64,000 nt of DNA from an uncultured bacterium (GCA_963822585.1 CAWGIE010000033.1:96001-160000), one strand, 5' to 3'. Positions 18,952 through 58,972 are shown, counted from the first letter of the stretch. A program made the numbers and translations. The notes: generated by a model from the sequence alone, not told the origin.

Positions 18952-19934
18952 CTATGCGGAACCGGAAGTCCGGTTCGGATAACTCCGGTACCAACGAACG
19001 GTCCTCTCCAATCCTTCTCTCAAGTCGATTGACGGCCTCCAGCCGGAGGCATCGCGAATTCTGGTATGATCCCCCACAAACCGCCGGATCTCGTTCTCGC
19101 GATAGGGGAGCACCTCCGGGTCCACCCGGACCCCGCCTTCCATCATTGAGTCGATCAGCACTACCAGGTCCCGTAATGAGATCTCCTCACCGGTCCCCAG
19201 GTTGAATACCTCGCCATAGCCGCGGCCTTCCTTGGCCGCCAGCAGAAATCCCTCCACCACGTCGTCGATATAGGTGTACTCCCGGGTCTGTTCGCCGGCC
19301 GTCATCCGGACCGGTTCTCCGGACAGGCCGGCCCGGATCAACTGGGGAAGAAATCGTTCCACGCCCTGGCCCGGGCCATAGACGAGAAAGAGCCGCATAA
19401 TTCTGACCGATGCTCCCAGGGACGCGGCGGCCATCCGGCCAAACATGGTGGCGGCGGCTTTGAGAATGAATACGGGGAGATCGGATCGAGGGACATCTCC
19501 TCTCTAAACGGCGCCGGATTTCGTCCATAGGCCTCGGCGGTACAGGCGGAAATCATGATCTCGTAATCAACCCGGCTCAGAGCAGCTATCAAATTGACGG
19601 TGCCCCCCAGGTTTACTGCCAGGGCCTCATCGATCTTTCTCCAGTCCCGGCTGACATCGGTCATGGCGGCCAGGTGGAATACTCTCCGCGGCGCGATCTT
19701 CCGGATGGCCTCCTGTACGGCAGTCCGGTCGCGGATGTCGACGGGATAGATCCCGATCGCGGACTCCAGTCCGTCCAGCCGCCCCCGAGGAGCGTCCGGA
19801 TGAATCAGGGCCGAGACCCGGGCTCCTTCCCGGACCAGGCGCCGCGCCAGCGCGGAACCGATGAATCCTTCCGCCCCCGTGACCAGCACGGGAATAGTGC
19901 GATACCCTTCAATTGGCACGTTCTTTCCGCTCAT
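18952..19934 (-). CDS. NAD-dependent epimerase/dehydratase (possible CDP-dideoxyhexose reductase), frameshift ~19460
   Basis: VLVTGAEGFIG, VFHLAA, SPYSFSK, RLFLVYGPGQ, GEQTREYTYIDD. Confidence 0.85.
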
Positions 19935-22759: not shown

Positions 22760-24320
<1,561 letters not shown>

Positions 24321-25839: not shown

Positions 25840-27900
25840 TTGGTTGTGGGATTGGTGTTGTTGTGTGTTTAATGTTGTAGTTATAAATAGTAGGGGATGA
25901 GAGATAAGAGGTGGAAGGGTGTAGGAAGGAAAAGAAAGATAGATAAGAAGAAGAAGGTTGAAGATGAAGAATAAATGAAGCAGGATCATGTAAACTTATT
26001 AGAGCAGAACAGAGCAGGGGTATGAAGAAAAAAAAAAAGAAGAAAAGAAAGAAGAAGGAGAGAGAGGAAGGAGAAGAAAAGTAGAAGAAAGGAAGAGAAA
26101 AAGAGAAGAGGAAATAAGCGGAGGTAATAGAGAGAATAAAGGGAGGAAGGTGTGATGGAGAGAAAGAAGGAGAAAAAAAAGAGAGAAAAAGATAAAAAAG
26201 AAAAAAGAAGAAAAAGAAGAAGAAAAAGGAGAAAGAGAAAGAAGAGAAAGAAAAAAGAGTAAAAAAAAAAAGAAGAAAAAAGAAAAGAAAAAAAGAAAAA
26301 AAAAAAAAAAAAGAAAGAAAAGACGAAAAAGAAAAAAGAATCAAAAGAATTAAATGGTCGCTTATAGTACCCGAACCTACCGGCGGGAGTAAAGACACAA
26401 TGTCGTATTCGCCGGGTGGAGTATGATATGATAACAAACAGCCCAGGCGATTAGACCAAAAAATAGGGGGGAGAGAAGAATAAAGAGTAGTTTATTTATA
26501 AAAGAGTAGGTGATAAAATGTGATATAAAAAATAAAAAAAAAAAGAAAATAAGTGTAGAAAGAAATGAAGTAAAGAATAAAGAAAAAGAGAATAATATAA
26601 AAAAATTAAGATATGTATATGATATAAATATTTATAGATAGAAATAAAAAAATGAAAAAAAAAAAATGATAGAGATAAGAGTTGTAACAGATGGAATTGA
26701 GAGGATGGCGAAAATTATTAAGGTAGGAGGTATAGGAGGGAAAGAATATTAAAGAGGAAAATTATATGATTAAAAGGTAAGATCTGAGAATGCGAGGTAT
26801 TAAAAAGATAGCTTCTTAAACTTTAGGGGATGTATAGATAAGGATGATGACGGGGGTTCGGTGATTGAGAAGCCGCCGGTTGGATTAAAATGATATGAGG
26901 AAAAACAGGATACAGCCGTCTAAAGGAAAGGTTAAAAGGAAAGGCATAGAGAGAAGAAGGTGACAGTTCCCGAGAAGGGCTAAAGATAAGAGAAGATACC
27001 ATCTGCACTATGAAGACCAGGTCTTAGTAAAATTCGAGGGGGGAGAGTAATAATAAGGTGTAAAGAGGATGTATTATTTTTGAAAGGTAGAGGGATTAAG
27101 ATAGAAAGAAGAGATAGATAAAAGGGAAGTATAATAAAAGAAAGAAGAGTTAGATTATATATTAAAAGGGGTGATGAGAGGGAGAAAGATTAAGTAAATG
27201 AAAAAGGAAGACTTTTGATCAGGAGAAAAAAAATTACTAAATCTCTGGCTATGATACCCCAGGGGATCTTGTTGATACTTTTGCGCATAAAATAATCGTA
27301 GTAGATGGCAGCGAACAGAAAAAAAAGGAAAGGTGAAGGAGATAGGTTAATAAAGAGAGAGTATAGATAGGTATTGATAGGAAAGGTTGGATAGTTAGAT
27401 CGTGAAAGGGAACGTATATACTGACAACGTGACAGATCATATTCTCCTGTTCCGTTATGACCACCGTGGCGTACTCCACGAGGGAATAATGGTTTTATAC
27501 AACGGGGAGGGAAATTCAGATGCACTGAGGGGAAGGGGGATGAAAAACAGGAACGGAATCAACGAATTTTTAAAATGACGATAAAACATTTACTTCGCTT
27601 TCTCATAACAGTAAGAGAACAGAGTGACGATGATAAGGCGGGAAGCTGGGATAAACCCCGCCGCGCTTATTTCACCCAGCCGGTTATAATCGCTGAAAGA
27701 TGTCATTTCTTATTACTATAATCCGCTTAATCAAAAGAAATATATTACATAGATGATAGTAAGGGTGTATTAATTGGTTTGAGTAATAATAGTGACTTTC
27801 TATATAGGTAGACACTATTCGCACAGTTCTTATAGAGTACAGAGATAGGTATTCTGAGAGGAAAGGTAAGTTAAGAATTTTTACAGACGAAGTAATTTTA
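25840..27900. other. Degraded purine-rich sequence, probable low-quality consensus over coding DNA
   Basis: A/G-only runs interrupted by short normal-looking islands; quality recovers gradually into the gene ending at 28664. Confidence 0.75.
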
Positions 27901-34265: not shown

Positions 34266-34370
34266 TAATTCTATCAGAAACGTCGGAATCACAAATAAAA
34301 AAATCCCGAGGAAGCTCGGGATTCGACCATCTCGTTTCATCACTTACCGCCCCGGGGAGGAGCGATGAAA

Positions 34371-35402
34371 TCAAATGGGGTATCGGCCGTCCGCCGTTTT
34401 GGAGATGTTGAAACTGATGTCGACCGCTATCGCCTGATATCGCTTCCCCCGGTGATTGGTGATTTCGAGCAGACGGCCGCGGGCACGAAGCCGGTCTTTC
34501 TTCCAGTACTCTCCGCGGGCCGATCCGTCATAACAGATGAGCTGAACGTTTTCCCGCGCCTTCCCTTCCAGGACGACCTCCCCCAGCTCCAGGACGAAGG
34601 GAACGTATGAATTATGGGAATCGTCGACAACCGTCCCGGTCACCGTCACGTCCGGCTCGACCACGGTGATATCCGCCCCGGCCAGGGGCACATCGTCCCA
34701 GTTCTCGTACACAAAGAAGGGACAGAGCAGAAACCCCTGGTGATAGATCCGGAGCGGCCAGTATCGCCCGAACTCGAAGACCCGCCTCTCCGGCTCCTGC
34801 GATAACCGGTGGAGACGGTCCCGCACCCGGAGATTCTCCGAAAGGCTTCCCATGAAGATAACGTCGAAATCCATGTCCGCTTCTTCAATCCTCCCATAGG
34901 CCAGGGAACCGGTCACACCCAGCTTGGAGAGGGGAAACTCCAGCAGTTCCGCGCTCTGCTCGGCCCAGCCGCTGACCAGGTCCGGATACATCTCTTCGCA
35001 GAGCTTCAGGCTCCGGAAAGGGTCGAAGTAGCCCCGGAAATCGGAGAGGGGGAATTCGAGAAGATAATCGGCGACTTGCGGCCGGGGTCGGGAAGGATCC
35101 AGAGAAGGATCGACCTCATACTGCTTGATGAGCTGGGCGTCATTGAGGATGGCCACGTGCTTTCCGTCAACCCAGGCCTTGTGCATGGCCTGGTAGCGGC
35201 GCCCCCAGATTTCGGAATCGCCGGTTTCACACGGGTAGTAAATAATCTTGCCGATGAACTCCCCCGGGGTGGGATGGTAATAGCCGTGTGAAAAGACGAA
35301 GCAGCCGTCCCGGCGTAAAAAATAAATGGAGTCCTTCACCCGGTCCCCGAGCTCCGACAGCGGGCGGAGGAACTTCTCCATGATCTGATCGAATTTGTCC
35401 AT
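34371..35402 (-). CDS. Pol-beta-superfamily nucleotidyltransferase, COG1665-like (paralog C)
   Basis: LGVTGSLAYG...DMDFDVIF; N-terminal D..YFLR.DG.F.F..GY.HP; C-terminal V.DD..P / YDG..RG. Confidence 0.75.
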   Translation of the reverse strand: MDKFDQIMEKFLRPLSELGDRVKDSIYFLRRDGCFVFSHGYYHPTPGEFIGKIIYYPCETGDSEIWGRRYQAMHKAWVDGKHVAILNDAQLIKQYEVDPSLDPSRPRPQVADYLLEFPLSDFRGYFDPFRSLKLCEEMYPDLVSGWAEQSAELLEFPLSKLGVTGSLAYGRIEEADMDFDVIFMGSLSENLRVRDRLHRLSQEPERRVFEFGRYWPLRIYHQGFLLCPFFVYENWDDVPLAGADITVVEPDVTVTGTVVDDSHNSYVPFVLELGEVVLEGKARENVQLICYDGSARGEYWKKDRLRARGRLLEITNHRGKRYQAIAVDISFNISKTADGRYPI

Positions 35403-35429
35403 AAATCAGCTCGCTGCGGCTGCGACTTT

Positions 35430-35585
35430 AACCGCCAAGACACTAAGACATTAAGTGAAAAATAAAATAAGGTTAAGTCATTCGGTCTTTTCTTAATAGG
35501 CAATCCCAACACCCCGGCCGAAAAAGTTTGGAATTTTGATATTCGGATTTATTTAGGATTTCGACATTCGGACTTAGGATTTTTC
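35430..35585. repeat. Chimeric spacer: left arm of 9-mer class + right arm of 7-mer class
   Basis: ACCGCCAAGACACTAAGACATTAAG ... ATTCGGATTTATTTAGGATTTCGACATTCGGACTTAGGATTT. Confidence 0.7.
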
Positions 35586-35616
35586 CTTTTCAACTATAAT
35601 ATCCCTACTGTATGGA

Positions 35617-36666
35617 TCATCCACCAACCAGGATCTCATCCTTCTCGGCCGGCGCCTCGCCCACTTTCTTGATATTATCCCAGAGAGTGACCAAAACCGC
35701 CGGGTAGGTTTCTCTGTATTGAGTCACCTCGACCAGGCGTCCTTTCATCTCCAGAATATCGCCGTTGAAGAACTCCCCCCGCAGCGCGCCGTCATAGATA
35801 ATCAGGGGCAGCGGATCGGCCGGCGATCCTTCGATGGTCACCTCTTCCAGGGGCAGCAGAGGAGGCATGTAATTGGTGTGGGTATCGTCAGCCACTACCC
35901 CCCGGACGTCGACGCCGTCCCGGACGACTTCAACCCGGAAGTCCCTCAAAGGGGCGGTCTCCCATCGGTCGTAGGTGAAGAAGGGACAGATCAGGTAACC
36001 CTTTTCATACATCCGCATCGGCCACCAGCGGCCGAACTCGATCACCCGGTGTTCCGGAAGAAGCGAAAGACGCCGGATCGTCTGATAAACCCGCCGGTTC
36101 TCTTCGATCGTGCCCGGGATGACCAGATCGAGGTCGTCATCGCCTTCTTCGTAACGTCCGTAGGCCAGTGAACCGGTCAGTCCCAGGGTTTCCCAGGGGA
36201 CTTCCAGAGCCTCGGCCGCGACGCGGGTCCCGTCTTCAACCCAGGGGTAAAGCTGGATGCAGGCCCGAAGCGAATGGACCGGCTCGAAAAAACCGACAAA
36301 ATCGGAGAGAGAAAATTCCATCTCATACTCGACGAATACCGGTCGCGGCGCCGCGGGATCGAGCGAGGGATCGATCTCCCCGTGCATCTTGATCTGCTCC
36401 GGATGGCCGACGTAGATACACTCGTCCCCCACCATCTTTTTAGTGGTGCAGCCGTATTCCCGCCCGAAGATATCGATGCTCCCGCCTTTCCGGGGATAGT
36501 AAATGATCTTGCCGTACAGTCCGCCTTTCGGATGACAGTAACCTTCGGTGAAGACGAAACTTCCGTCGTTGCGCAGAAAATATAGCGAATCGGTTGCTCT
36601 CCCTCCATCCAGTTCGGAGAGAGGGCGGAGAAACCGCTCCATGATCTCATCGAATGTGTATTTCAT
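35617..36666 (-). CDS. Pol-beta-superfamily nucleotidyltransferase, COG1665-like (paralog B)
   Basis: LGLTGSLAYG...DDDLDLVI; EGYCHP; EFGRWWPMR; ICPFF. Confidence 0.75.
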   Translation of the reverse strand: MKYTFDEIMERFLRPLSELDGGRATDSLYFLRNDGSFVFTEGYCHPKGGLYGKIIYYPRKGGSIDIFGREYGCTTKKMVGDECIYVGHPEQIKMHGEIDPSLDPAAPRPVFVEYEMEFSLSDFVGFFEPVHSLRACIQLYPWVEDGTRVAAEALEVPWETLGLTGSLAYGRYEEGDDDLDLVIPGTIEENRRVYQTIRRLSLLPEHRVIEFGRWWPMRMYEKGYLICPFFTYDRWETAPLRDFRVEVVRDGVDVRGVVADDTHTNYMPPLLPLEEVTIEGSPADPLPLIIYDGALRGEFFNGDILEMKGRLVEVTQYRETYPAVLVTLWDNIKKVGEAPAEKDEILVGG

Positions 36667-36683
36667 GACAGACTTCCAACCCT

Positions 36684-37694
36684 TTACTCTTCTTTCTTGA
36701 TATTGTCCCGCAAATTAACCAGCAGAGCCTCATACTCGCGGGCAGCGGTCCGGACCAGGACCCGGCGGGCCGTGAACTCCAGGTAATCGCCGTTAAAAAA
36801 TTCGCCCCGGAGGGAACCATCGTAGATGATCAGGTCCAAATCCCGAGACCGTTTCCCGTTCAGGAGCAAATGCGAAAGAGTCATGATCGCGGGCATATAA
36901 ATGGTATGAGTGTCGTCGTCAACCATTCCCACCCCCTTCACGTCCTCTTCCAGTACGGTCATGGTGCAGTTTCTGAGCGGGATCTCTTCCTCGATACGGT
37001 AGTTGAAGAAGGAACAGATCATCATCTCCTCCCAGTAGAAACGGATCGGCCACCAGCGGCCGAATTCAAATACCCGGTTCCGGGGGTTGCGGGTCAGTTC
37101 CCTGATCTGCCGGAGAACGTTCTTGTTTTCGTCGATGCTGCCGTACCAGACCAGATCGATATCGTCATCCGGTTCTTCGAACTTGCCGTAGCAGGTGGAA
37201 CCGGTACAGCCCAGCCGATCGAGCGGGACATCGAGCCCCCGGCTGATGTCCCCAATCGACTTTCCGACGCAGGGATACATCTCCATCGCCACCCGGAGGG
37301 AGTGATGATGCTCGAAGACCCCTTTAAAATCGCTCAGGGGAAACTCGATGTGAAATTCCTCGTACACGGGACGGGGCGCCGTAAGATCGAGGCCGGGCGT
37401 GAGCTGGGACTGGAGCATCATCTGCTCGGGGTGCGGGATCAGGGTCAGTTCGCCGTCGATAATCCGCTTATAACTGCTCCTGAACTTCCGGCCGAAAATA
37501 TCGGTGTCGCCGGCCGGATCGGGCGCCAGCATGACTTTTCCCATCAGACCGCCTTCCGGATGCATGTATCCTTCGGTAAATACGAAGGCTCCATCCTTGC
37601 GGAGAAAATAATACGCGTCCCCCACCCCCATCTTCAGGCTGGAGAGGGGCTGCAGAAAACGCCGGATTGTTTTTTCATAGAGATCGTTCATCAT
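36684..37694 (-). CDS. Pol-beta-superfamily nucleotidyltransferase, COG1665-like (paralog A)
   Basis: LGCTGSTCYG...DDDIDLVWYG; EGYMHP; EFGRWWPIR; ICSFF. Confidence 0.75.
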   Translation of the reverse strand: MMNDLYEKTIRRFLQPLSSLKMGVGDAYYFLRKDGAFVFTEGYMHPEGGLMGKVMLAPDPAGDTDIFGRKFRSSYKRIIDGELTLIPHPEQMMLQSQLTPGLDLTAPRPVYEEFHIEFPLSDFKGVFEHHHSLRVAMEMYPCVGKSIGDISRGLDVPLDRLGCTGSTCYGKFEEPDDDIDLVWYGSIDENKNVLRQIRELTRNPRNRVFEFGRWWPIRFYWEEMMICSFFNYRIEEEIPLRNCTMTVLEEDVKGVGMVDDDTHTIYMPAIMTLSHLLLNGKRSRDLDLIIYDGSLRGEFFNGDYLEFTARRVLVRTAAREYEALLVNLRDNIKKEE

Positions 37695-37894
37695 ACTTCC
37701 TTGCGGTTATTCCCTGCGCGGAGGGCGGAATTGGACCGACACGGTCATAAATTAGCGGGTTTTCATTATTTATCGTAGTTCAGATTGATAATAACCGTGG
37801 ATTTAGCTCGTGACCAACAGTTCACCTCCATAACGGAATGTTCAGAGTCACATGAAGCACAAACAAACGCATGTTGTTTGAGTTGTTTTTTCGA

Positions 37895-37989: not shown

Positions 37990-38018
37990 ACTATATTGAA
38001 TCGAAGAGACCCTGTCAA
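37990..38018 (-). promoter_or_regulatory. Sigma70-type promoter facing the nucleotidyltransferase triplet
   Basis: Minus strand TTGACA-N17-TATAGT. Confidence 0.7.
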
Positions 38019-49053: not shown

Positions 49054-49878
49054 TCATAACTTGATCTTCGGGTCCAGGTAATCCCGGGCGGCGTCGCCCA
49101 GTATATTGAAAGACATCACCGTCAGGGCCAGGGCAAGACCCGGGAAGAGGACGATCCAGGGCGCGGTCTTCAGGTACTCGCGGCCGGCGCTGATCATGAA
49201 CCCCCAGGTGGCGGTGGGAGGCCGGACCCCCAGGTCGAGAAAACTCAGGGCGGACTCGGCCAGGATAAAGGCGCCGATTTTCAGGCTGGCCGCGATCAAA
49301 ACGATGGGAACACAATTGGGCAGGATGTGACGGAGAAGTATCCGGAGAGGGGAGGACCCGCCGGCTCTGCCCGCTTCCACGTACTGCCGCTCTTTCAAGG
49401 CCAGGACTTCTCCACGCACCAGGCGGGCGATCGACGCCCATCCGACCAGGGAAAGGGCGAGCAGGACGGTGAAAAAACCGGGGGAAAGGACCACCGTGAT
49501 CCCGATCGCCAGTAGAAGACTGGGGAAGGCAAGGGTGATATCGGTTGCCATCTGCAGAACCCCGTCGACGATCCCCGGGAAATACCCTGCCGCCAGCCCC
49601 ACGATCGTTCCCAGCGCGAGGGCCAGGCCGGTCGCGAAACAGCCGATCAGGAGGGAAATCCGGGCCCCGTAGATCACCCGGCTGAAAATATCGCGCCCCT
49701 TTTCATCCGTTCCGAAAAGGTGGTTTTTCCCGGGGACCTGTTTCACCTCGTCCAGGTTGACGGCATCCGGATCATAGGGGGCAAGCAGGGGCGCCAGCAG
49801 GGCGGTCAGGACAATCAAAACGATAAAGCCGGCCGCCGCCGCCGCCAGCCTGTTTTTCTTAAAAAACCGAAGTTTCAT
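49054..49878 (-). CDS. Peptide/nickel ABC permease (DppC/OppC-like)
   Basis: HLFGTDEKGRDIFSRVIYGARISL; EAA loop; HILPN; start reset to ATG 49878. Confidence 0.92.
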   Translation of the reverse strand: MKLRFFKKNRLAAAAAGFIVLIVLTALLAPLLAPYDPDAVNLDEVKQVPGKNHLFGTDEKGRDIFSRVIYGARISLLIGCFATGLALALGTIVGLAAGYFPGIVDGVLQMATDITLAFPSLLLAIGITVVLSPGFFTVLLALSLVGWASIARLVRGEVLALKERQYVEAGRAGGSSPLRILLRHILPNCVPIVLIAASLKIGAFILAESALSFLDLGVRPPTATWGFMISAGREYLKTAPWIVLFPGLALALTVMSFNILGDAARDYLDPKIKL

Positions 49879-49936
49879 GTCAGAATCCTGCCCGTTTCTA
49901 CATCCGGTGGAGGGAAAAGGAGCCCCCTTCTTCCGT

Positions 49937-50054
49937 GTGGAGTACGGGAGTATTGGAGTGATGGAATAATGGGAACGCTCGCCGGACACCCGGTAAGACA
50001 GGTCGATGCCATTTCCCAACACTCCATCATTCCAACACTCCATCACTCCATTAT
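49937..50054. repeat. Inverted 8-mer micro-repeat element
   Basis: TGGAGTACGGGAGTATTGGAGTGATGGAATAATGG ... CCAACACTCCATCATTCCAACACTCCATCACTCCATTA. Confidence 0.9.
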
Positions 50055-50102
50055 TTCATTTTTTCTTTTTCTCTCTTGGTGTCTTTGTGTCTTGGCGGCT
50101 GT

Positions 50103-51104
50103 TTAATGATCATACCTTATTCGGGGATCGATGAATGCGTAGGAGATGTCAACGGCGATGTTGGCGGCGATAAAAATTACCGCCCCCAGCATGACGCAGC
50201 CGATAATCACCGGGTAGTCGCGCTGGAGGATGGCGTTCATCGCCAACCGTCCCACCCCGTCCCAGGAAAAGATCGTCTCCGTCAGAACCGCGCCGTTCAG
50301 GTAGGAACCGAAATCAAGGCCGGCCAGGGTTACGATCGGGATCAGGGCGTTGCGGAAGATGTGTCCGGTGATCACCCGGCGCCGGGAAAGGCCCTTGGCC
50401 CGGGCGGTGGCGACGTAATTTTCGCCTGACACCTCCAGCATGCTGGCCCGGGTAATGCGGGCCAGATAGGCGGCCGAACGGGAACCGAGCGTTACCGCGG
50501 GGAGTACCAAAAAGATCAACGCTCCGCCCCCCATCCCCGAGGGAGGGAACCACCCCAGGCAATAAGAAAAAACCAGGATCAGGATCAGGCCCAGCCAGAA
50601 GACCGGGATTGATATCCCGCTGATGGCCAGGAAACCGGCCAGACGGTCCCAGAAGGTTCCGGGATAAGAGGCGGAGAGTATCCCCAAAAACAGGCCGCAG
50701 ATAACCGCTATCAGTATGGCGGCCAGGGCCAGGCGGGCGGTATTCGGCAGCTTCTCCAGGATCATGCCGCCGACCGGTTGGCCGGTAAAATAGGACCGTC
50801 CCAGGTAGGGCCGCTTGAAGAGGGAGATCCAGGGGACGGTACGTCCCCCGAGGTGCCGCCGCTCGATCGTGGGAAGCTTGATAAAGGAGACACTCTTCAG
50901 GAACTTCCAGTACTGGACCGGGAGGGGGCGGTCAAGCCCCAGCCGTTCCCGGTTGCGGGCGATCACTTCCGGAGAGGTCCGTTCGCCGACCAGCGCCCGG
51001 GTGGGGTCGCCGGGGATGCTCCTGATCAGGATGAAGGTGATCAGCGTCACCCCCGCCAGCGTGGGAACCGCGATCAGGAGTCTTTTAACCACATACCTAA
51101 TCAT
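50103..51104 (-). CDS. Peptide/nickel ABC permease (DppB/OppB-like)
   Basis: PGDP, GLDRPLPVQY, TARAKGL, ETIFSWDGVG, RDYP, DPRIR. Confidence 0.93.
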   Translation of the reverse strand: MIRYVVKRLLIAVPTLAGVTLITFILIRSIPGDPTRALVGERTSPEVIARNRERLGLDRPLPVQYWKFLKSVSFIKLPTIERRHLGGRTVPWISLFKRPYLGRSYFTGQPVGGMILEKLPNTARLALAAILIAVICGLFLGILSASYPGTFWDRLAGFLAISGISIPVFWLGLILILVFSYCLGWFPPSGMGGGALIFLVLPAVTLGSRSAAYLARITRASMLEVSGENYVATARAKGLSRRRVITGHIFRNALIPIVTLAGLDFGSYLNGAVLTETIFSWDGVGRLAMNAILQRDYPVIIGCVMLGAVIFIAANIAVDISYAFIDPRIRYDH

Positions 51105-51158
51105 TGTGTTAACTATACCGTGCTCAAAAATAATCTCGTATTGAATATAAATCAATTA

Positions 51159-51445
51159 AAACCACGAAGGACACGAAGATCACGAAGTATTTTAAAATGA
51201 GTGTAATCCTATTTGTTTCCTTGACCATTCTTCATGTCGTGGGACAGTCGCTACGCTGCTTGTCCCGCAAGCGGGATCCGTCTCACTGCGTTCGGCTCGT
51301 GCTCTTCGTGATGAATTACTTCATTGTTGAGGGAAAATAAGGATAAAAATACCACGGAGTCTCGAAGCACACAAAGAATAGAGGGAGACGGGCGAAACAA
51401 TGTCCTTTCCCCAAAAACTTCGTGATCTTCGTGTCCTTCGTGGTA
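51159..51445. repeat. Two tandem inverted 9-mer elements (CACGAAG class), the first with a nested REP-like hairpin
   Basis: ACCACGAAGGACACGAAGATCACGAAG..[GGGACAGTCGCTACGCTGCTTGTCCC]..CTTCGTGATG; ACCACGGAG...CTTCGTGATCTTCGTGTCCTTCGTGGT. Confidence 0.85.
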
Positions 51446-51447
51446 AT

Positions 51448-52491
51448 TTAGTTAACTGCGGCCAGTTCGCGTTCCAGTTTCGGCCTTATCAGATTTTTCC
51501 GGTACGGCTCCATGAACGACTGGTCCAGGGCGGAGATCATCAACCCCTTGATCTCATCCAGGGTAAAGTTGAAATGCTCCATCGCCAGGAGAAGCTCGTT
51601 TGTGAAAGTGGTGTCGCAGATGGCGGGATCGTCGGTATTGAGAGAAATCCTGATGCCGTAATCGTAGAGACGACGTACCGGGTGAGACGCCAGGTCGGGA
51701 ACGGTCTTTGTCTGTACGTTGCTGGTCAGGCAGATCTCCAGGGGCACCCCCCTCTCTCTCACCCAGGCCATCATCTCCTCATCGTTGATGATCCGGATTC
51801 CGTGGCCGATCCTCTGGGCGCCCAGGGCTTCGATCGCGACCCGGATATTGGTCTCGCCTCCTCCCTCGCCGGCGTGGACGGTGACGTTGAGGCCGTTCTC
51901 CTGGGCAACCTTGAAGGCGGTAATAAAAAGCTCGGGAGGGAAGGCGGCCTCATCGCCGAAGAGATCGATCCCCACCACCCCCAGGCCGGTATAATCGGCC
52001 GCGGTATCCACCGCCCGCAGGGCCAGTTTCAGGCCGTTGGATCGGGAGATGCCGACAATAAAGCCGACGTCGATATCGAACTCTATCTCTGCCCGGCGGG
52101 CGCCTTTGAGGACCGCGTGGAGCAGCTCATCCCAGCCGTGAGGGGTCTCCAGCGTCATGAAGACGGGGCTGAACCTGAGTTCGAGCACCCGGATATTGTC
52201 CCGGGCGCAATCCCGGCAGACATAGTAGGAAACGCGCTCGATCGCCTCCAGGGTAGGGAACGCCATCCCGATCCAGAAAAATTTTTCCAGAAACTCCTGT
52301 AAACTGCCCACGTGCCCTTTAATCTGCACCAGCGACCGCAGTTCTTCCAGATCGTACGAGGCCAGCTTGACGTTGTAGTCACGGGCGATTTCCAGCAACA
52401 GCTCCGCCGAAATGCACCCTTCCAGGTGCCGGTGGAGTTCCACCTTGGGTAAATTCTTTATCCTCTCAATCGTTTTCTGATCCAGCGCCAT
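51448..52491 (-). CDS. add: Adenosine/adenine deaminase
   Basis: PKVELHRHLEG, HAGE, RIGHG, EICLTSN, NTDDP. Confidence 0.9.
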   Translation of the reverse strand: MALDQKTIERIKNLPKVELHRHLEGCISAELLLEIARDYNVKLASYDLEELRSLVQIKGHVGSLQEFLEKFFWIGMAFPTLEAIERVSYYVCRDCARDNIRVLELRFSPVFMTLETPHGWDELLHAVLKGARRAEIEFDIDVGFIVGISRSNGLKLALRAVDTAADYTGLGVVGIDLFGDEAAFPPELFITAFKVAQENGLNVTVHAGEGGGETNIRVAIEALGAQRIGHGIRIINDEEMMAWVRERGVPLEICLTSNVQTKTVPDLASHPVRRLYDYGIRISLNTDDPAICDTTFTNELLLAMEHFNFTLDEIKGLMISALDQSFMEPYRKNLIRPKLERELAAVN

Positions 52492-52623
52492 CCGATTGCC
52501 TCCCGTCCGGGTTACGATACATTCTCTCCCGACCGGCCGGAACATATCGGGGGCATTCCGGGGAAAGAGTTATCGCCAAGGTCGGTTAATGAACGTCATT
52601 ATAACCGGGGAAGAGAGCTTGGA

Positions 52624-54195
52624 TCAATACAAATTAAGCTCAAGATCGGTGAACTTATCTCCGTTATAGATAAGCGGGATCCGGTAATTCTTTACCCGCG
52701 GATTACAGATCATTACTTCCTTCTTGTGCCAGAGGAAGACCCAGGGGGCGAGTTCGACCACCCGGGCCTGCGCGGCTTCCAGCAGCCGTTTCCGTTCTTT
52801 CCGGTCGGTTGTCCGGGCGGCGGCGTCCAGTTCCCGGTCGACCTCCCGATCGCTGAAGCGGGACCGGTTGCCGCCGGGACCGATGTTGGCCGAGTGAAAT
52901 GTCGGGTAGAGGAAGTTTTCGGCGTCCGGGTAATCTCCCCACCAGGAGAGGAAGAAAATATCGAAATCACCGTCGTCGACGGCCTGCTTGAACGAACTCC
53001 ACTCCCGCTGGACCAGGACCAGCTCGATGCCGACTTTCTTCAGGTAGTCCTGGATCACCTCCGCGATGCTGAGAACTTCGCGATCGGCCTTGAAAAGCAG
53101 GGCGGCCTTCAGGGGCGGTTCAACCCCGGCGCGGGCCAGCAGTTCTCTTGCCCGAACCGGATCGTAGGGGTAGCCCCGGGGTACTGCCGGGAGAAGACCC
53201 GGCGGGACCGGCCCGGCGGCGGCCACCGCCCGCCCCTCCAGGATGACGTCGATGATCTTCTCCCGGTCGATCGCGCAGTTAAAGGCCTGCCGGACGCGCG
53301 GGTCGTTGAAGGGGGGGCGACGGCAGTTGAAACCGAGATAGTAGCAGTTGAGCCCAACCCGGCTCCGGACCCTCTCCTTCCAGGGCGCTTCGGTCGTGTA
53401 CTTCCTGTATTCGGCCCGGGGGACTTCCATGATATCGAGATTGCCCTGTTCGAACTCCACCACGGCGGTCAGCGTCTCCGGGATCACCCGGTAGAGTATC
53501 CCCGCCAGCCGGGGCGGACCGGCGAAGTAATCCGGGTTGCGTTCCAGGAGGATCCGGTTGTTGTGGCTCCATTCGACGAGCCGGAACGGTCCCGTCCCCC
53601 GGGGATGATCGGAGAACGATTCTCCGGGTTTCTCCACCGCTTCCCGGGGGACGATGGCGGCGTTGGGCATGGCCAGGAAATCAAGAAACAGGGCGGACGG
53701 CTCGCTCAGTTCGATCTCGACCGTATTCTTCCCGGCCGCCCGCAGTCCGGGCAGCTGTGTCGATTGGCCGGAGGTGAAGGCGGGGGCTCCCCGCACGTCC
53801 TTCAGCAACCAGGAACGGGGAGAGTTGACCGCGGGGTCGAGAATGCGGCGGAGAGAATAGACAACGTCGTCCGCCGTCACCTCCCGGCTGGTCGTGAATT
53901 TCACCCCGTTCCGGAGAAAAAAACGATATCCGCGGCCGTCATCCGAAATCTCCCAGCGGGAGGCAAGATCGGGCACGATTTTTCCCTCCGCGTCGAAACG
54001 GACCAGTCCGTTGAAGATTTTGGCCGCCAGCGCGCCACCCGGGACGTCCACGATAAAGGCCGGGTCAAGGGTGGAAGGGTCATCCTTCAGCATCAGGCGG
54101 AGATCGTTTTCTTCCTCACCGTTCCGCGATCCGCACCCGGTCAGAAGGAGGAGAAGAAATACGGCGATCCTTTCGATTGGCTGGCACCATTTCAT
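52624..54195 (-). CDS. ABC transporter substrate-binding lipoprotein, family 5
   Basis: LTGC lipobox; DPSTLDP, PDLASRW, GTGPF, RVRQA; start ATG 54195. Confidence 0.92.
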   Translation of the reverse strand: MKWCQPIERIAVFLLLLLTGCGSRNGEEENDLRLMLKDDPSTLDPAFIVDVPGGALAAKIFNGLVRFDAEGKIVPDLASRWEISDDGRGYRFFLRNGVKFTTSREVTADDVVYSLRRILDPAVNSPRSWLLKDVRGAPAFTSGQSTQLPGLRAAGKNTVEIELSEPSALFLDFLAMPNAAIVPREAVEKPGESFSDHPRGTGPFRLVEWSHNNRILLERNPDYFAGPPRLAGILYRVIPETLTAVVEFEQGNLDIMEVPRAEYRKYTTEAPWKERVRSRVGLNCYYLGFNCRRPPFNDPRVRQAFNCAIDREKIIDVILEGRAVAAAGPVPPGLLPAVPRGYPYDPVRARELLARAGVEPPLKAALLFKADREVLSIAEVIQDYLKKVGIELVLVQREWSSFKQAVDDGDFDIFFLSWWGDYPDAENFLYPTFHSANIGPGGNRSRFSDREVDRELDAAARTTDRKERKRLLEAAQARVVELAPWVFLWHKKEVMICNPRVKNYRIPLIYNGDKFTDLELNLY

Positions 54196-54351
54196 TGCCG
54201 CAACTCTATCACTAAACCGCAAAGAGGCAAAGATCGTAGTATCGGCTTCGCCTTGCAGGAAATGTAGTATCGCTCCAGGCTTACGCCCGGAGCTTGTAGG
54301 ATCACCGCGTTTGCTATTTTTTGGTTCACATCTATTTTTATTTACAGGTAT

Positions 54352-54645
54352 TCTCCATGTCCTCTGTGATCTCTGTGGTTTAAACACGGGACCATGGCAA
54401 AAAATACTTTAGTGTCAATTAGTGAAATTAGTGGACAAAAAAGAGGCCGAGGTAGAGGGAATTAATCGGGTCCCCGCAAAGTGCCTCCGGCACCGCGGGG
54501 TAAAAATCTGTGTAAACTTGTGGTGAGCGAAGTCGAATCCATCTGTGGACAAGCAAGGGTCCGAGGGGAGTCAGAGAAATCGCTCCGGGTAATTTCGCGT
54601 AATTCGCGAAATTCGTAGTTTAATCAAGGGGCCGCGGTAGAGGGC
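54352..54645. repeat. Array of different 9-mer arms alternating with a G-rich conserved motif
   Basis: CTCTGTG-, TTAGTG-, ATCTGTG- and TTCGCG-class arms; three are followed by variants of AAGAGGCCGAGGTAGAGGGA. Confidence 0.75.
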
Positions 54646-54686
54646 AACTCATCTTCAATCACATTCAAATCGTCTGTTTTTTCCAG

Positions 54687-56261
54687 CTATAAAAAGCGGC
54701 CGGGGAGTTTTCCGGTGTGCTCCCCGTCCTCCATCACGATCTCCCCGTTGACGATCACGTACTCGATCCCTTGGGGGTACCGCTTCGGCTCCCGGTAGGT
54801 CGCCCGGGAACGGATCGTCTCCGGGTTGAAGATCACCAGGTCGGCCGCCGCTCCTTCCCGGATCATCCCCCGGTCGGCCAGCCCCAGTTTCCGGGCCGGC
54901 TGCCCCGTCATCTTGAAGACCGCTTCCTCCAGCGTCAGGGTGCCGTCTTTGACGAACTCGTCCAGGACTTGCGGGAAAGTCCCGAAGGTCCGGGGATGGG
55001 GCTTTCCCCGGGAGAGCGGCCCGGTCGCCGCCCGGGCGGAGGCGTCGGAGCCGATCATGCAGTAGGGCTTCCCCAGGATCCGCCGGAGATTGTCCGGGCT
55101 CATCCCGAAGAAGAGCGCTTCCACGTTCAGCTCCTCCTCGATCAGGAGTTCGTAGAAACAGTCCAGCGGGGAAACGTTCCTTTTCTCCGCGATCTGGGCC
55201 AGGTTCATCCCCTCGATGGACCGGTTCGCCTCCGTCGCGACATGGGAAATCACCACGCCGTCCCAGTCGTCCCGGTCGACCTCAGGCGACATCCGGCGCC
55301 GTTCCGCCGGGTCCTTGAGCCGGCGCAGTTCTTCCCCGGCGCCCCCCTCGCTGGCCCAACCCGGCAGGAGGATGTCAAGCTCCGTGGCCGAAGCGAGATA
55401 GGGGTACCGGTCGCAGGTGACGTTGAAACCGCGGGAACGGCTGGCCTCGATCTTTTCCAGACAGGCGGCGAGACGCCCCCAGTTCCGCCGCCCCTGCGCC
55501 TTCAGGTGCGATATCTGGAGAGAGACCCCCGTCTCTTCCGCCAGGCGGATGGCTTCCCCCACCGCTTCTTCCACCGTGTCGCTCTCGTTGCGCATGTGGG
55601 TGGCGTATATTCCTTCCGCTTTGGCGGCCAGCCCGATCAGCCCGGCCAGCTCTGCGAAATCGCTGAAGCTTCCCGGGGGATAAACCAGGCCGGTCGAGAT
55701 TCCCCGGCTCCCCGCCGCCAACTCATCTTCCAGGAGAGTGAGCATCCGCTTCATCTCCTCCCGGGAGGGAGAGCCGCCACGGTACCCGATAATCGATCCC
55801 CGGAGGTTCCCGTGACCGGTCAGGGGGACGATATTGACCGCGGTCCCCCCGTCCTCGACTCTCCGGCGGTACTCCCCGAGTGTCGCCCAGTCGATGGTAA
55901 TTTCCAGGTACTGCTTGCGGACCCGTTCCCGCTTCTCTCCGGCGAGGGGAGAGGCGGAACCGCCGCACTGTCCGATCGCCTCCGTCGTCACCCCTTGCCG
56001 GACCTTGCTCTCGGCAAGGGGATCGATCAGGATGGTGAAGTCGGAGTGGGAGTGAATATCGATGAAACCGGGGGCGAGAACCAGGCCCGGGCCCTCGATC
56101 ACCCGGTCCGCCTCTGAGTTGCCCAGGTCGCCGACAGCGTCAATCCTCCCGTTCCGGACCCCGACATCCGCCTCAAAGGCCACTTTTCCGTTCCCGTCTA
56201 CTACCCGAAGATCACGGAAAAGTAGGTGATATATAATTTTTTTGTCTATTTTCTTAGTCAT
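54687..56261 (-). CDS. N-acyl-D-amino-acid deacylase (D-aminoacylase family)
   Basis: PGFIDIHSHSD, QGVTTE..GQCG, STGLVYPPG, THMRNE, ISHLK, GSD, HPRTFGTFP. Confidence 0.92.
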   Translation of the reverse strand: MTKKIDKKIIYHLLFRDLRVVDGNGKVAFEADVGVRNGRIDAVGDLGNSEADRVIEGPGLVLAPGFIDIHSHSDFTILIDPLAESKVRQGVTTEAIGQCGGSASPLAGEKRERVRKQYLEITIDWATLGEYRRRVEDGGTAVNIVPLTGHGNLRGSIIGYRGGSPSREEMKRMLTLLEDELAAGSRGISTGLVYPPGSFSDFAELAGLIGLAAKAEGIYATHMRNESDTVEEAVGEAIRLAEETGVSLQISHLKAQGRRNWGRLAACLEKIEASRSRGFNVTCDRYPYLASATELDILLPGWASEGGAGEELRRLKDPAERRRMSPEVDRDDWDGVVISHVATEANRSIEGMNLAQIAEKRNVSPLDCFYELLIEEELNVEALFFGMSPDNLRRILGKPYCMIGSDASARAATGPLSRGKPHPRTFGTFPQVLDEFVKDGTLTLEEAVFKMTGQPARKLGLADRGMIREGAAADLVIFNPETIRSRATYREPKRYPQGIEYVIVNGEIVMEDGEHTGKLPGRFL

Positions 56262-56437
56262 CGTTCGCAAAACATCTTATCACTATTTTATTGCTGTAGG
56301 TTTATGATATTTTCCTTCCTATGCTTGGAGATTACGCAATATTACCTTCTTGAGGTGAACTAGGTATCTTACCTCCGTCTGGAGGTTTATGGACGATCCC
56401 TAAATGCCGGAGACACACGAGAATAGATCCAACATCT

Positions 56438-56477
56438 GATTAAACATTTTCTGCCGATCGGCAGAAAATGTTTAATC
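56438..56477. repeat. Perfect 40-bp palindrome
   Basis: GATTAAACATTTTCTGCCGA|TCGGCAGAAAATGTTTAATC. Confidence 0.9.
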
Positions 56478-56543
56478 GGAGATCGGCCACAAAGGGGAAA
56501 GAGCGCTGGAAGTGATGCGGCGGTTTATCGGCCGGGGTATTCT

Positions 56544-57662
56544 TTACTCAGCCAGCCGGACGTCGCCCAGGTTGTCTTCGAGGACGGCGAGATACTCATC
56601 GAGCGGGTGGCGCTTTTTGTCGACGATCCGGTAGGTGGTGATCCCCACCCGGTGTCCCTTGATCCGGATCCGGTTCCCCTTACGCCAGTCCCCCCGCTCC
56701 GCCCCGTGGTGGATGATCAGGCGGCTGATCCCGGGCTCGGCCTTCCCCGAAACCTTCACGTCCTCCAGCATCAGGATGGTGGGGTTGACCGCGTTGTAGG
56801 TGTCGTCGGCAACGGTCGCCTCCACCTCCACGGGCCCCAGGTCCGCGCAGTCGAAGTTGCGCAGGGGGGCTTCTTCGGGGTCGAGGAAAGAGAAGAAGGG
56901 GCAGACCATGAACCTCTCATCCCCGACGTGGTCCCAGAACCGGATCGGCCAGTACTTGCCGAACTCGTACACCTGCCTCTCCTCATGCTTGTCTGTCAGG
57001 GTGTACATGAAATTGACGATCCGTTTGATCTCCGGGGTGGAGGCGTAAACGACGAAATCCAGGTCATGGGGATTGGCATACGTCCCCAGGGAGACGGAAC
57101 CGGAGATCCCCAATTGAGAGATGTCGATCTCCAGCAGCTCGGCGGTGTGTTCGGCGATGGTCTTGATCTTGCTCGCGACGGGAGCCTCGCCGGCTTTGTC
57201 CATGATGCACTGAAGCGAGTTCCGGTGAGGGAAACAGGCGACCAGGGAGGTCAGGGGGACACGGGCCTTGAATATCCCGTATATCGGCCGTTCGATATCT
57301 TTCTGTGTGGGGTCGATCTCGATATACCTGGCCAGCTGCAGAGGGTAGAGCTGATCGAGGGGCTCGTTCTCCATGATCTCCTTGGTGATATTCTCGAACG
57401 GGAGCCCGAAGATATTTTTAATGCAGTGCGGGGGAACAGTCCGGGACGGGTCGAGGAGAACGTAAAAATAATGGGCATTGACGATCCTCTCTTCCCGGGG
57501 TTTCTCGATCTGATGATAATAGCCCTCGGTAAAGATGAACGTTCCGTCGTCTTTCAGAAAATACATGGCGTCCCGGAAGTCATCGTCCGCGTTGATGGGC
57601 AGAGCGAAACGGGAAAATTCCGGGTCTTTTCGCATTTTTTCGATAATCGGGTTCACTTTCAT
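56544..57662 (-). CDS. Pol-beta-superfamily nucleotidyltransferase, COG1665-like (paralog D, more divergent)
   Basis: DAMYFLKDDGTFIFTEGYYH; LGISGSVSLG...PHDLDFVVY; EFGKYWPIR; VCPFF; VADDT; HHGAERG. Confidence 0.75.
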   Translation of the reverse strand: MKVNPIIEKMRKDPEFSRFALPINADDDFRDAMYFLKDDGTFIFTEGYYHQIEKPREERIVNAHYFYVLLDPSRTVPPHCIKNIFGLPFENITKEIMENEPLDQLYPLQLARYIEIDPTQKDIERPIYGIFKARVPLTSLVACFPHRNSLQCIMDKAGEAPVASKIKTIAEHTAELLEIDISQLGISGSVSLGTYANPHDLDFVVYASTPEIKRIVNFMYTLTDKHEERQVYEFGKYWPIRFWDHVGDERFMVCPFFSFLDPEEAPLRNFDCADLGPVEVEATVADDTYNAVNPTILMLEDVKVSGKAEPGISRLIIHHGAERGDWRKGNRIRIKGHRVGITTYRIVDKKRHPLDEYLAVLEDNLGDVRLAE

Positions 57663-57831
57663 CACCTTCCTGAATCATCTCGGTTATAAAAGGTAAATTC
57701 CGAGTCCGGGTCTCTTAATAGGAATGGATCTTCATGAGACCCGACTCGGTATTTGAGCGTCAGTCTATCACAACCGGGAGACTTTTAAAGTATAAAATAA
57801 CAAAGGGTCAAGGGGTCATCAAGGGGTCATC

Positions 57832-58972
57832 AAGGGGTCAAGTCTACTCTTGGCTCATATTTGAAATAGTGATAGACTTCTTCCTTCACCGCAGCGGTGG
57901 GTTACGACATACATACTAAGTACATGAAAAAGGATCCTCTATGGCCCGTCCCTTGAGAATACTTTACCCCGGTGCCTGGTACCATGTGATGAACCGGGGC
58001 GCGGGAGATAAAAATATTTTCAGGAATGACTCCGATCGTTACGGATTTCTGCGCCTTCTCGAAGAATCCGTTGGAATGTGGAATATTGAAGTTCACGCTT
58101 ACTCCTTGATGGAAACGCATTATCACATCCTGATAAGAACTCCCCTGGCTAACCTTCCCCGGGCTATGCGTCACATTGATGGTGTACATACTCAACGCTT
58201 TAACCTGCGCCATAATACCGACGGTCACTTATTCCGGGGGAGATACAAATCAATTTTAATCGATAAAGAACACTATCTATTGGAAGTAGTACGCTATATC
58301 CACCTTCAAAAAGTGAGAGCAGGATTGATTGATGATCCGAAAAATGATCAATGGTCATCTCATCAGATATATCTATCCCCACATTGCCAAAGATCGTGGT
58401 TGTTTATCGATACAATCCTCGGGTTATTCGGTACCGATATCAACAGATCCCGAAGAAAACTCGACAACTTCGTCAAGAAAGGTGTTTCAGAGGAATTAGA
58501 ACAATTTTATGGTAAACAACGTCTCTCTCCTATTCTGGGTTCCGAAACATTCATCAATAGAATAAAAGAGACTTATGTTATTCCTGTAGAATTGTCCTAT
58601 GAGATTCCAGATGCTAAGATTATGCTCCAAGTCCCGATCAATCACATTACCCAAGCCGTTTGTTTGGTATACGGAATATCCTTGACTGAACTTAAAAATT
58701 CCAACCGGGGGAGAAGGAATACTGCGCGGAATATGGCCGTTTATCTTGCCCGGAAAGTTGGCGGATACACCCTCAATGAGATCGCGAGTTATTTTGGTTG
58801 TAAGAATTACTCGGGAGTTAGCTCAATTATTCAAAGGTTTGAGCAATATACAATCGAGAATACCGATGTGGAGGAACTGAGCTTAAAAGCCAAAAAACAC
58901 ATTTATCAATTTTTGGCTGAAGAAGCGGAAGGCAGATGAATAAATATGAGCCAAGAGTAGACTTGACCCCTT
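57832..58972. mobile_element. RAYT/Y1-transposase element bounded by perfect 31-bp inverted repeats
   Basis: 57832-57862 AAGGGGTCAAGTCTACTCTTGGCTCATATTT is the exact reverse complement of 58942-58972; interior is visibly more AT-rich than the host genes. Confidence 0.85.
57941..58939 (+). CDS. REP-associated tyrosine transposase-like HUH protein with C-terminal DnaA-type HTH
   Basis: MARPLRI.YPGAWYHVMNRG, LMETHYHIL (HUH), GHLFRGRYKS, RYIH, WSS; C-terminal ARNMAVYLARK..GYTLNEIA.YFG...YS.V. Confidence 0.9.
   Translation: MARPLRILYPGAWYHVMNRGAGDKNIFRNDSDRYGFLRLLEESVGMWNIEVHAYSLMETHYHILIRTPLANLPRAMRHIDGVHTQRFNLRHNTDGHLFRGRYKSILIDKEHYLLEVVRYIHLQKVRAGLIDDPKNDQWSSHQIYLSPHCQRSWLFIDTILGLFGTDINRSRRKLDNFVKKGVSEELEQFYGKQRLSPILGSETFINRIKETYVIPVELSYEIPDAKIMLQVPINHITQAVCLVYGISLTELKNSNRGRRNTARNMAVYLARKVGGYTLNEIASYFGCKNYSGVSSIIQRFEQYTIENTDVEELSLKAKKHIYQFLAEEAEGR

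Follow-up and report, generated by a model that had tools for sequence, protein, structure and literature searches.

Nucleotidyltransferases of the DNA polymerase beta (Pol-beta) superfamily underlie RNA tailing, antibiotic modification, second-messenger immunity and protein AMPylation. The minimal members collected in PF01909 (NTP_transf_2), such as MNT and KNTase, have the hG[GS] and DxD motifs, a third carboxylate and a palm fold, joined to a helical second domain or accompanied by a HEPN partner. Here, we analyzed three adjacent genes, named A, B and C (the trio), within a stretch of 64,000 nucleotides (the window) from an uncultured bacterium (GCA_963822585.1, CAWGIE010000033.1:96001-160000), whose genome consists of 4.51 Mb in 48 contigs, with 89% completeness and 7.8% contamination. 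The encoded proteins have the motifs, the carboxylate and the palm in common with the PF01909 enzymes, but add an N-terminal beta domain and an OB fold where those enzymes have a helical domain or a HEPN partner. The trio belongs to an undescribed three-domain family that uses a known catalytic fold and shows unusual, ancient, about nine-fold paralogy.

Domain layout and active site

The three genes are intact, co-oriented open reading frames (ORFs) at exactly the positions given in the initial annotation (Table 1), with 17 bp between the stop of C and the start of B. In a three-protein alignment, B and C were 48% and 40% identical to A, B was 47-48% identical to both A and C, and 98 columns were invariant. 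All the motifs that had been singled out beforehand were among these columns, i.e., D..YFLR.DG.FVF..GY.HP in the N-terminal region, LG.TGS..YG...D.D.D in the nucleotidyltransferase core, EFGR(W/Y)WP.R, and DD.H..Y.P and YDG..RGE in the C-terminal region. The core was found as LG(L/V/C)TGS...D.D.D in each of the three proteins, and a genome-wide search gave E-values of about 1e-101 between paralogs, a similarity far above chance.

The AlphaFold2 model of B had a pLDDT (predicted local distance difference test) of 94.5, or 95.0 for residues 1-245, and a pTM (predicted template modelling score) of 0.91. When residues 140-241 were used in a fold search, the matches were almost only Pol-beta-fold enzymes, in agreement with the alpha/beta palm of that superfamily, and its signature hG[GS]x9-13Dh[DE]h was present in A, B and C. 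Residues G162, G165, D178, D180 and E210 (B numbering, here and below) were invariant in 41 members, and G165, D178 and D180 were conserved at ≥90% in 106 diverse members. The third carboxylate corresponds to the invariant E210, which lies on model strand 207-210, and we infer that it is a metal ligand.

Sequence libraries were less direct. Neither Pfam nor NCBIfam matched A, B or C at E<0.01; at E<=10, Pfam matched only B, to NTP_transf_2 with 14.2 bits (E 0.059) over GS...DxD, A and C gave no match, and none of the three reached the PF01909 gathering cutoff of 21 bits. Six of the 28 distant relatives scanned exceeded this cutoff, with 22.4-29.8 bits, linking the trio to NTP_transf_2 by transitive homology. 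When the 106 diverse members were searched at E<=1, matches were obtained to NTP_transf_2 (37/106), Polbeta (17/106) and, weakly, the MTPAP-like palm PF22600 (14/106). The palm fold search and the six relatives above the cutoff thus bear out the earlier proposal of Pol-beta-type nucleotidyltransferases with an intact metal-binding motif, and A, B and C are very probably active enzymes of this fold.

The domains on either side of the palm were of different kinds. The N-terminal domain of B is beta-rich, and its family-conserved residues are D26, Y29, F30, R32, D34, G42, Y43, H45, P46, P58 and G68. No match to it was found by fold search, in the protein atlas, in the Pfam tally or by a profile search of the PDB, and its interpretation as a diverged copy of the OB domain was rejected (hhalign probability 0.2%). 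The C-terminal domain, already described as beta-rich, is real and was identified as an OB fold, its barrel being recognized by fold comparison and its conserved residues being V258, D261, H263, Y266, P268, Y291, R296, G297, G302 and D303. The palm, which extends to about residue 242, runs directly into this OB fold in the model, with no helical substrate domain in between; likewise, no PAP-associated family was among the Pfam matches listed for the trio and the 106 members. Since the N-terminal domain was without a match and was not an OB copy, the layout consists of a novel N-terminal domain followed by a minimal palm and then by an OB fold. With Foldseek, neither the whole-protein nor the N-terminal model had a PDB match at E<=0.001, PDB sequence searches with B, the family profile and the N-terminal and OB-domain profiles found nothing significant, and the matches in the BFVD viral library were SSB-like OB folds only.

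In keeping with the first proposal of an uncharacterised family, Pfam, NCBIfam and PADLOC name no family for the trio. NCBIfam was also silent on 19 of 20 relatives scanned, and the twentieth, P0182, was matched only through a fused methyltransferase domain. The putative assignment to COG1665 we treat as an assumption of the initial annotation, otherwise resting on the generic label 'predicted nucleotidyltransferase' that the Joint Genome Institute (JGI) gives to several homologues. A full-text literature search for 'COG1665', which did not cover the supplement of the 2009 nucleotidyltransferase-fold classification (PMC2794190), gave no match, and a term search of the main text of the main Auribacterota genome paper did not find 'nucleotidyltransferase' there.

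Table 1. Positions, counted from the first letter of the window, of the trio, paralog D, the domains and motifs of protein B, and candidate regulatory sites.
Feature	Position	Strand	Remarks
Gene C	36684..37694	minus	336 aa; first in transcription order; N-terminal domain, Pol-beta palm and OB fold; intact ORF
Gene B	35617..36666	minus	349 aa; second in transcription order; modelled protein; intact ORF
Gene A	34371..35402	minus	343 aa; third in transcription order; intact ORF
N-terminal beta-rich domain of B	36331..36666	minus	residues 1-112; secondary structure from AlphaFold2 model
Minimal Pol-beta palm of B	35941..36249	minus	residues 140-242
G162-x-T-G-S166 motif of B palm	36169-36183	minus
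D178-x-D180 motif of B palm	36127-36135	minus
E210 of B palm	36037-36039	minus
C-terminal OB fold of B	35647..35940	minus	residues 243-340
B-A spacer	35403..35616	minus	214 bp, AT-rich; AAATCC(T/G)AA-like words repeated
Sigma-70-like promoter candidate upstream of C	37990..38018	minus	TTGACA-17-TATAGT; 11/12 consensus matches only
Weaker promoter candidate upstream of C	37788-37816		consensus match only
Terminator-like hairpin	34301..34324	minus	10 bp stem and T-run; 47 nt past A stop, before likely lpxA start
Paralog D	56544..57665	minus	373-aa ORF

Paralogs, distribution and inheritance

The trio had been presented as a candidate system in itself. Our searches showed that it is one cluster of a dispersed family of nine paralogs in the source genome, where the trio is joined by a fourth copy in the same window (D, Table 1), which had gone unreported, by three copies on contig 23, and by one each on contigs 26 and 47. 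Of the six copies outside the trio, four are single genes (D on contig 33, the copies on contigs 26 and 47, and that at C23:35763). Named homologues belong to Candidatus Auribacterota/Aureabacteria (Euphemobacter, Tritonobacter, 'PVC group'). When 61 genomes of this phylum were surveyed at E<=1e-10, 17 were positive for the family, each with 6-10 matches, and the other 44 had none. In 15 of the 17 positive genomes, three adjacent matches were found at the spacing of the trio, and a second conserved tandem pair also recurred among genomes of the phylum.

When 75 copies from 15 genomes were combined with eight outgroup sequences in a maximum-likelihood tree, A, B and C each fell into its own orthologue clade of seven rows, with a Shimodaira-Hasegawa-like approximate likelihood ratio test (SH-aLRT) support of 100 and orthologues 73-82% identical. 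In f14 genomes the trio was partly different: only its third gene was placed next to the B clade, as its sister (SH-aLRT 96), whereas the A-type gene was elsewhere in the genome. The composition of the trio hence differs between bacterial families. Pairwise Nei-Gojobori estimates of the ratio of nonsynonymous to synonymous substitution rates (dN/dS) in five genomes were 0.09-0.24 for A, 0.10-0.16 for B and 0.07-0.20 for C, indicating purifying selection. With family members in 17 of 61 genomes, separate clades for A, B and C and these low ratios, the expansion is old, lineage-wide and under purifying selection, and neither strain-specific nor relaxed, as had been considered at the outset. We infer that the nine or so old paralogs have non-redundant roles.

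A profile search of 1.84 billion representatives retrieved 536 relatives at E<=1e-3, all of them cluster representatives, from bacteria and archaea. Beyond the phylum, relatives include proteins of Actinoplanes and Gordonia and archaeal proteins of Njordarchaeota, Methylarchaceae, Bathyarchaeia, Thermoproteota and Hydrothermarchaeota. The archaeal branch, mainly from Bathyarchaeia, was homologous across all three domains (hhalign 99.9%, E 1.7e-31, 299 columns), so the earlier description of the trio as archaeal-type was partly right: a distant archaeal branch with the whole layout does exist. Longer fused forms were not found among 8000 candidates, which is weak evidence. Two relatives had unusual compositions: P0182 (533 aa) is a family member fused to a C-terminal UbiE/BioC-like class-I S-adenosylmethionine (SAM) methyltransferase, and P0172 (337 aa) matches the family in the OB domain only and carries a Schlafen/AlbA_2 domain.

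Adjacent copies were also seen among these relatives. At eight of ten loci from named genomes, archaeal or other, a second family member adjoins the first. Metagenome-assembled genomes (MAGs) of Bathyarchaeia (loci L059-L065) have the family members as divergently transcribed pairs, in which the query-type copies formed a supported clade and the divergent partners fell outside it. In a Thermoproteota MAG (locus L066, 673-12421), two family genes end a tight same-strand run with GHMP-kinase, DUF1464, flavoprotein/Fer4, pterin-binding/DUF4346 and GCHY-1 (folE2-type) genes, and this run resembles methanopterin/pterin biosynthesis genes. The opposite strand of this locus encodes a protein with TrmB helix-turn-helix (HTH) and TiaS-TCKD domains as well as CitG, whose gene is about 3.4 kb away from the two family genes.

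Paralog D heads a same-strand run in the window (49057-57665, minus), in which D is followed by Amidohydro_3, SBP_bac_5 (a solute-binding protein), an adenosine-deaminase-family gene (A_deaminase) and two ATP-binding cassette (ABC) permease genes; this run may serve salvage or uptake. In genome G043, too, the D orthologue is followed by Amidohydro_3. On the other side of D there is a 332-aa ORF (57941-58936, plus) with IS200-like Y1 transposase and DnaA C-terminal HTH domains.

Proposed acceptor and joint action

We propose that A, B and C are cytosolic three-domain nucleotidyltransferases, expressed from an operon of their own, that act jointly, with the evidence on the acceptor leaning toward a small molecule, and we give this explanation as a whole a probability of about 0.4. 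A nucleoside triphosphate with Mg2+ would bind to the palm of each enzyme, and the nucleoside monophosphate would be transferred to a hydroxyl of an acceptor held in the cleft between the N-terminal and OB domains. These two domains would replace the helical substrate domain of terminal uridylyltransferases (TUTases) and kanamycin nucleotidyltransferases, and adjacent copies would probably cooperate, whether as parts of a heteromer or by catalysing successive steps. A set of residues conserved in every paralog and in the archaeal branch, with D26, R32, D34 and H45 in the N-terminal domain and D261, H263, Y266, R296 and D303 in the OB domain, probably surrounds a single pocket.

As the acceptor, a small soluble nucleoside- or cofactor-like molecule is tentatively favoured over bulk RNA or DNA. 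The nine paralogs have isoelectric points (pI) of 4.70-6.44, whereas the median pI of 21 other proteins of the window is 7.35. The net charge of the OB domain averages -4, and its pI is 4.4-6.1 in the three trio proteins; conservation in this domain is strongest at D, H, Y and R residues and not over a basic surface. This acidity, together with the purine, nucleoside and amidohydrolase genes that recur loosely nearby, leans toward a small-molecule acceptor, and so do the pterin-cofactor run of one archaeal relative and the methyltransferase fusion of P0182. Of the A_deaminase genes of the source genome, three in all, two are located at a distance of about 4.1 kb from a paralog, and of its two nupC genes one is 1.2 kb away from the trio; the ±5 kb zones around its six paralog loci make up about 1.6% of the genome, and the proximity of two of three A_deaminase genes is therefore unlikely by chance (about 1e-3 by our own estimate). 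Elsewhere, an adenosine-deaminase-family gene is found 3.5 kb from the trio of genome G011, and a PNP_UDP_1 phosphorylase gene about 1-4 kb from f14 trios.

Known small-molecule enzymes of the superfamily offered partial parallels. The aminoglycoside nucleotidyltransferase ANT(2'')-Ia, which acts on a small-molecule acceptor, was the top Foldseek row for the N-terminal model, with an E-value of 0.19 that is not significant, and ANT enzymes are acidic. However, the trio is not in a resistance context, and retention as nine conserved paralogs on the chromosome is not typical of a resistance gene. CitX and MdcG are Pol-beta-clan enzymes that act on a triphosphate donor. MdcG, which according to its Pfam description transfers a phosphoribosyl-dephospho-CoA group, was weakly matched by 2 of the 106 members (E 0.047, below significance), and is a lead only, since the matches to CitX/MdcG are insignificant, come from a single locus, and no acyl-carrier context accompanies the genes in Auribacterota genomes.

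Several observations weigh against the explanation that we propose. The best structural neighbours of the palm were the RNA-tailing enzymes TUT7, CutA, Trf4 and TUT1, and the best OB-domain matches were nucleic-acid-binding OB folds. Some members matched RNA-related families, i.e., the MTPAP-like palm mentioned above and tRNA_anti-codon (PF01336; 3/106, best E 0.051), both weakly, and P0172 combines the OB domain with Schlafen/AlbA_2. The nucleoside-gene proximity was noticed post hoc and is not universal: none of the six purine nucleoside phosphorylase (PNP) genes of the source genome is near a paralog, of the 35 loci searched in other genomes, only 1 had an adenosine-deaminase-family gene near the paralogs, and inherited gene order may account for much of the pattern. 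Finally, positions fixed within but differing between orthogroups made up 8-16% of each domain and were evenly spread with no domain preference, so that no specificity module was apparent.

The fold neighbours, TUTases and nucleic-acid-binding OB folds, lean toward RNA, and a somewhat unlikely alternative is accordingly that these proteins are terminal nucleotidyltransferases of RNA or single-stranded DNA, in which the OB fold would bind a single-stranded 3' end, e.g., of a tRNA or small RNA, the palm would add one or a few nucleotides, and different paralogs would recognise different RNAs. Among the top palm neighbours there were also Tailor, GLD-2 and Cid1, and those of the OB domain included RPA, the PolC OB, MCM, SSB and the anticodon-binding domains of class IIb aminoacyl-tRNA synthetases; the weak PF22600 and PF01336 matches and the domain combination of P0172 fit as well. 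Nevertheless, identity to TUT7, Cid1, Trf4 and CutA is only about 13-18%, and the family lacks their PAP-associated or central helical domain, the palm leading straight into the OB fold in the model. Unlike non-canonical poly(A) polymerases (PAPs) and TUTases, it is acidic, in whole proteins and in OB domains, in a proteome that is not, and its palm has only about 100 residues. The conserved OB residues are mainly acidic or aromatic, RNA-processing genes did not recur near the loci examined, and a canonical PolyA_pol/CCA enzyme is already encoded in the genome. The idea that the family substitutes for a missing CCA-adding or poly(A) enzyme was rejected, as PF01743 is present at 94.6 bits.

The initial annotation regarded A, B and C as subunits of one hetero-oligomer or as consecutive steps of a pathway, with the trio as the functional unit. 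The recurrence of three-match arrays at the same spacing, the short C-B gap, the catalytic residues kept in all copies, the independently conserved pairs of Bathyarchaeia and the all-or-none distribution of the family (no match or 6-10 per genome) are consistent with this, but it is unlikely, given that six more paralogs are dispersed, four of them as single genes, that the f14 membership differs, and that the spacer before A has 214 bp in the source genome. No supporting evidence was found for a discrete three-gene system. A looser form, in which adjacent paralogs act jointly as a heteromer or in consecutive steps and which overlaps with the other explanations, remains a tentative suggestion of somewhat less than even odds; it is made plausible by the independent conservation of adjacent paralogs in two distant lineages. 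A complex prediction of C with B from their own orthologue alignments returned no answer (score 0.00), which speaks neither for nor against binding.

Modification of proteins by AMPylation or UMPylation, with one target protein per paralog as in GlnE, GlnD or MNT, is very unlikely: no conserved target or partner gene was found, sequence matches to the GlnE, GlnD and MNT families did not go beyond the generic NTP_transf_2, and the methyltransferase gene that adjoins the array in some genomes (see below) is missing from f1 genomes, including the source genome. A role in defence or signalling, as synthases akin to those of cyclic-oligonucleotide-based antiphage signalling systems (CBASS) or as toxin-antitoxin nucleotidyltransferases, is highly improbable, because PADLOC had no match for the nine paralogs, no effector, HEPN, toxin or antitoxin gene was found among the Pfam-scanned neighbours (the absence of an adjacent HEPN, CBASS effector or toxin partner had been noted in the initial annotation), tblastn against 50,697 phage and 72,556 plasmid records detected no relatives, vertical inheritance, synteny and purifying selection across the clade are unlike mobile defence islands, the helical lobe of the CBASS enzymes CdnE and CdnG is lacking, and the trio proteins, with 336-349 aa and three domains, differ from the MNT-HEPN arrangement, in which a nucleotidyltransferase of about 100-150 aa lies beside HEPN.

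Genomic surroundings and significance

The trio looks like a transcription unit of its own, as promoter-like and terminator-like sites bracket it (Table 1). Within the lpxA ORF, the alignment to LpxA models does not begin before residue 58-60. The long spacer between B and A was particular to the source genome, the orthologous genes being 18 bp apart in G043. Downstream, the genes foreseen in the initial annotation are present, i.e., lpxA (NCBIfam equivalog, 331 bits), a gene for a NupC-family nucleoside transporter, and a glycosylation region with a PMT_2 glycosyltransferase; upstream and divergent are a response-regulator/PAS/histidine-kinase gene and a Tol-Pal cluster. By tblastn, lpxA followed the array in 6 of 14 other-genome loci (G043, G055, G027, G059, G050 and G056), in five of these together with nupC, and both flanks were absent from all seven f14 loci examined. 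In f14 and f21 genomes, a gene of the protein-L-isoaspartate O-methyltransferase (PCMT) family lies directly 3' of the array (a cluster from five genomes, Pfam-confirmed in G020, G056, G051 and G045), adjoining it at loci L031, L042, L049 and L050, and the gene order in G056 is pair, PCMT, lpxA. The six paralog loci of the source genome had no partner gene in common. Rfam gave nothing at the gathering threshold in 20-40 kb.

Some features of the window may concern the assembly itself. Inside a glycosylation gene cluster, at 22760-23501, there is a 538-base T run (90% matches) followed by 31 A and 93 T, and at 26024-26349 an A/G-rich low-complexity stretch of about 320 bases; both are most likely artefacts of MAG assembly and explain dips in GC content and skews. 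At 18955-19934 (minus), a gene of the NAD-dependent epimerase/GDP-mannose-dehydratase type appears split into two overlapping ORFs, of which the one at 19341-19934 encodes the N-terminal part and the one at 18955-19446 the C-terminal part; the probable cause is a frameshift or an error of assembly.

Collectively, the family is real, well-defined and uncharacterised, and it is a good biochemical target rather than a demonstrated new system. Its combination of a minimal palm with a novel N-terminal domain and an OB fold was named by no library or literature searched, and its retention, in one clade of an uncultured phylum of the PVC group, as some nine copies that are each conserved separately points to a sizeable undescribed nucleotide biochemistry. 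A more specific and quite doubtful possibility is that the paralogs form a panel of acceptor-specific nucleotidyltransferases, with adjacent copies as obligate heteromers, as suggested by the pairs conserved independently in Bathyarchaeia, that jointly make or label nucleoside- or cofactor-derived molecules (or specific RNAs) in an undescribed pathway; this pathway would be linked in Auribacterota to purine/nucleoside salvage and in some archaea to the synthesis of pterin cofactors, and if this were true, the N-terminal domain would be a new substrate-binding fold. With the acceptor identified, hundreds of 'hypothetical proteins' would gain an annotation, and nucleotidylated metabolites or RNA marks of a new class might come to light.

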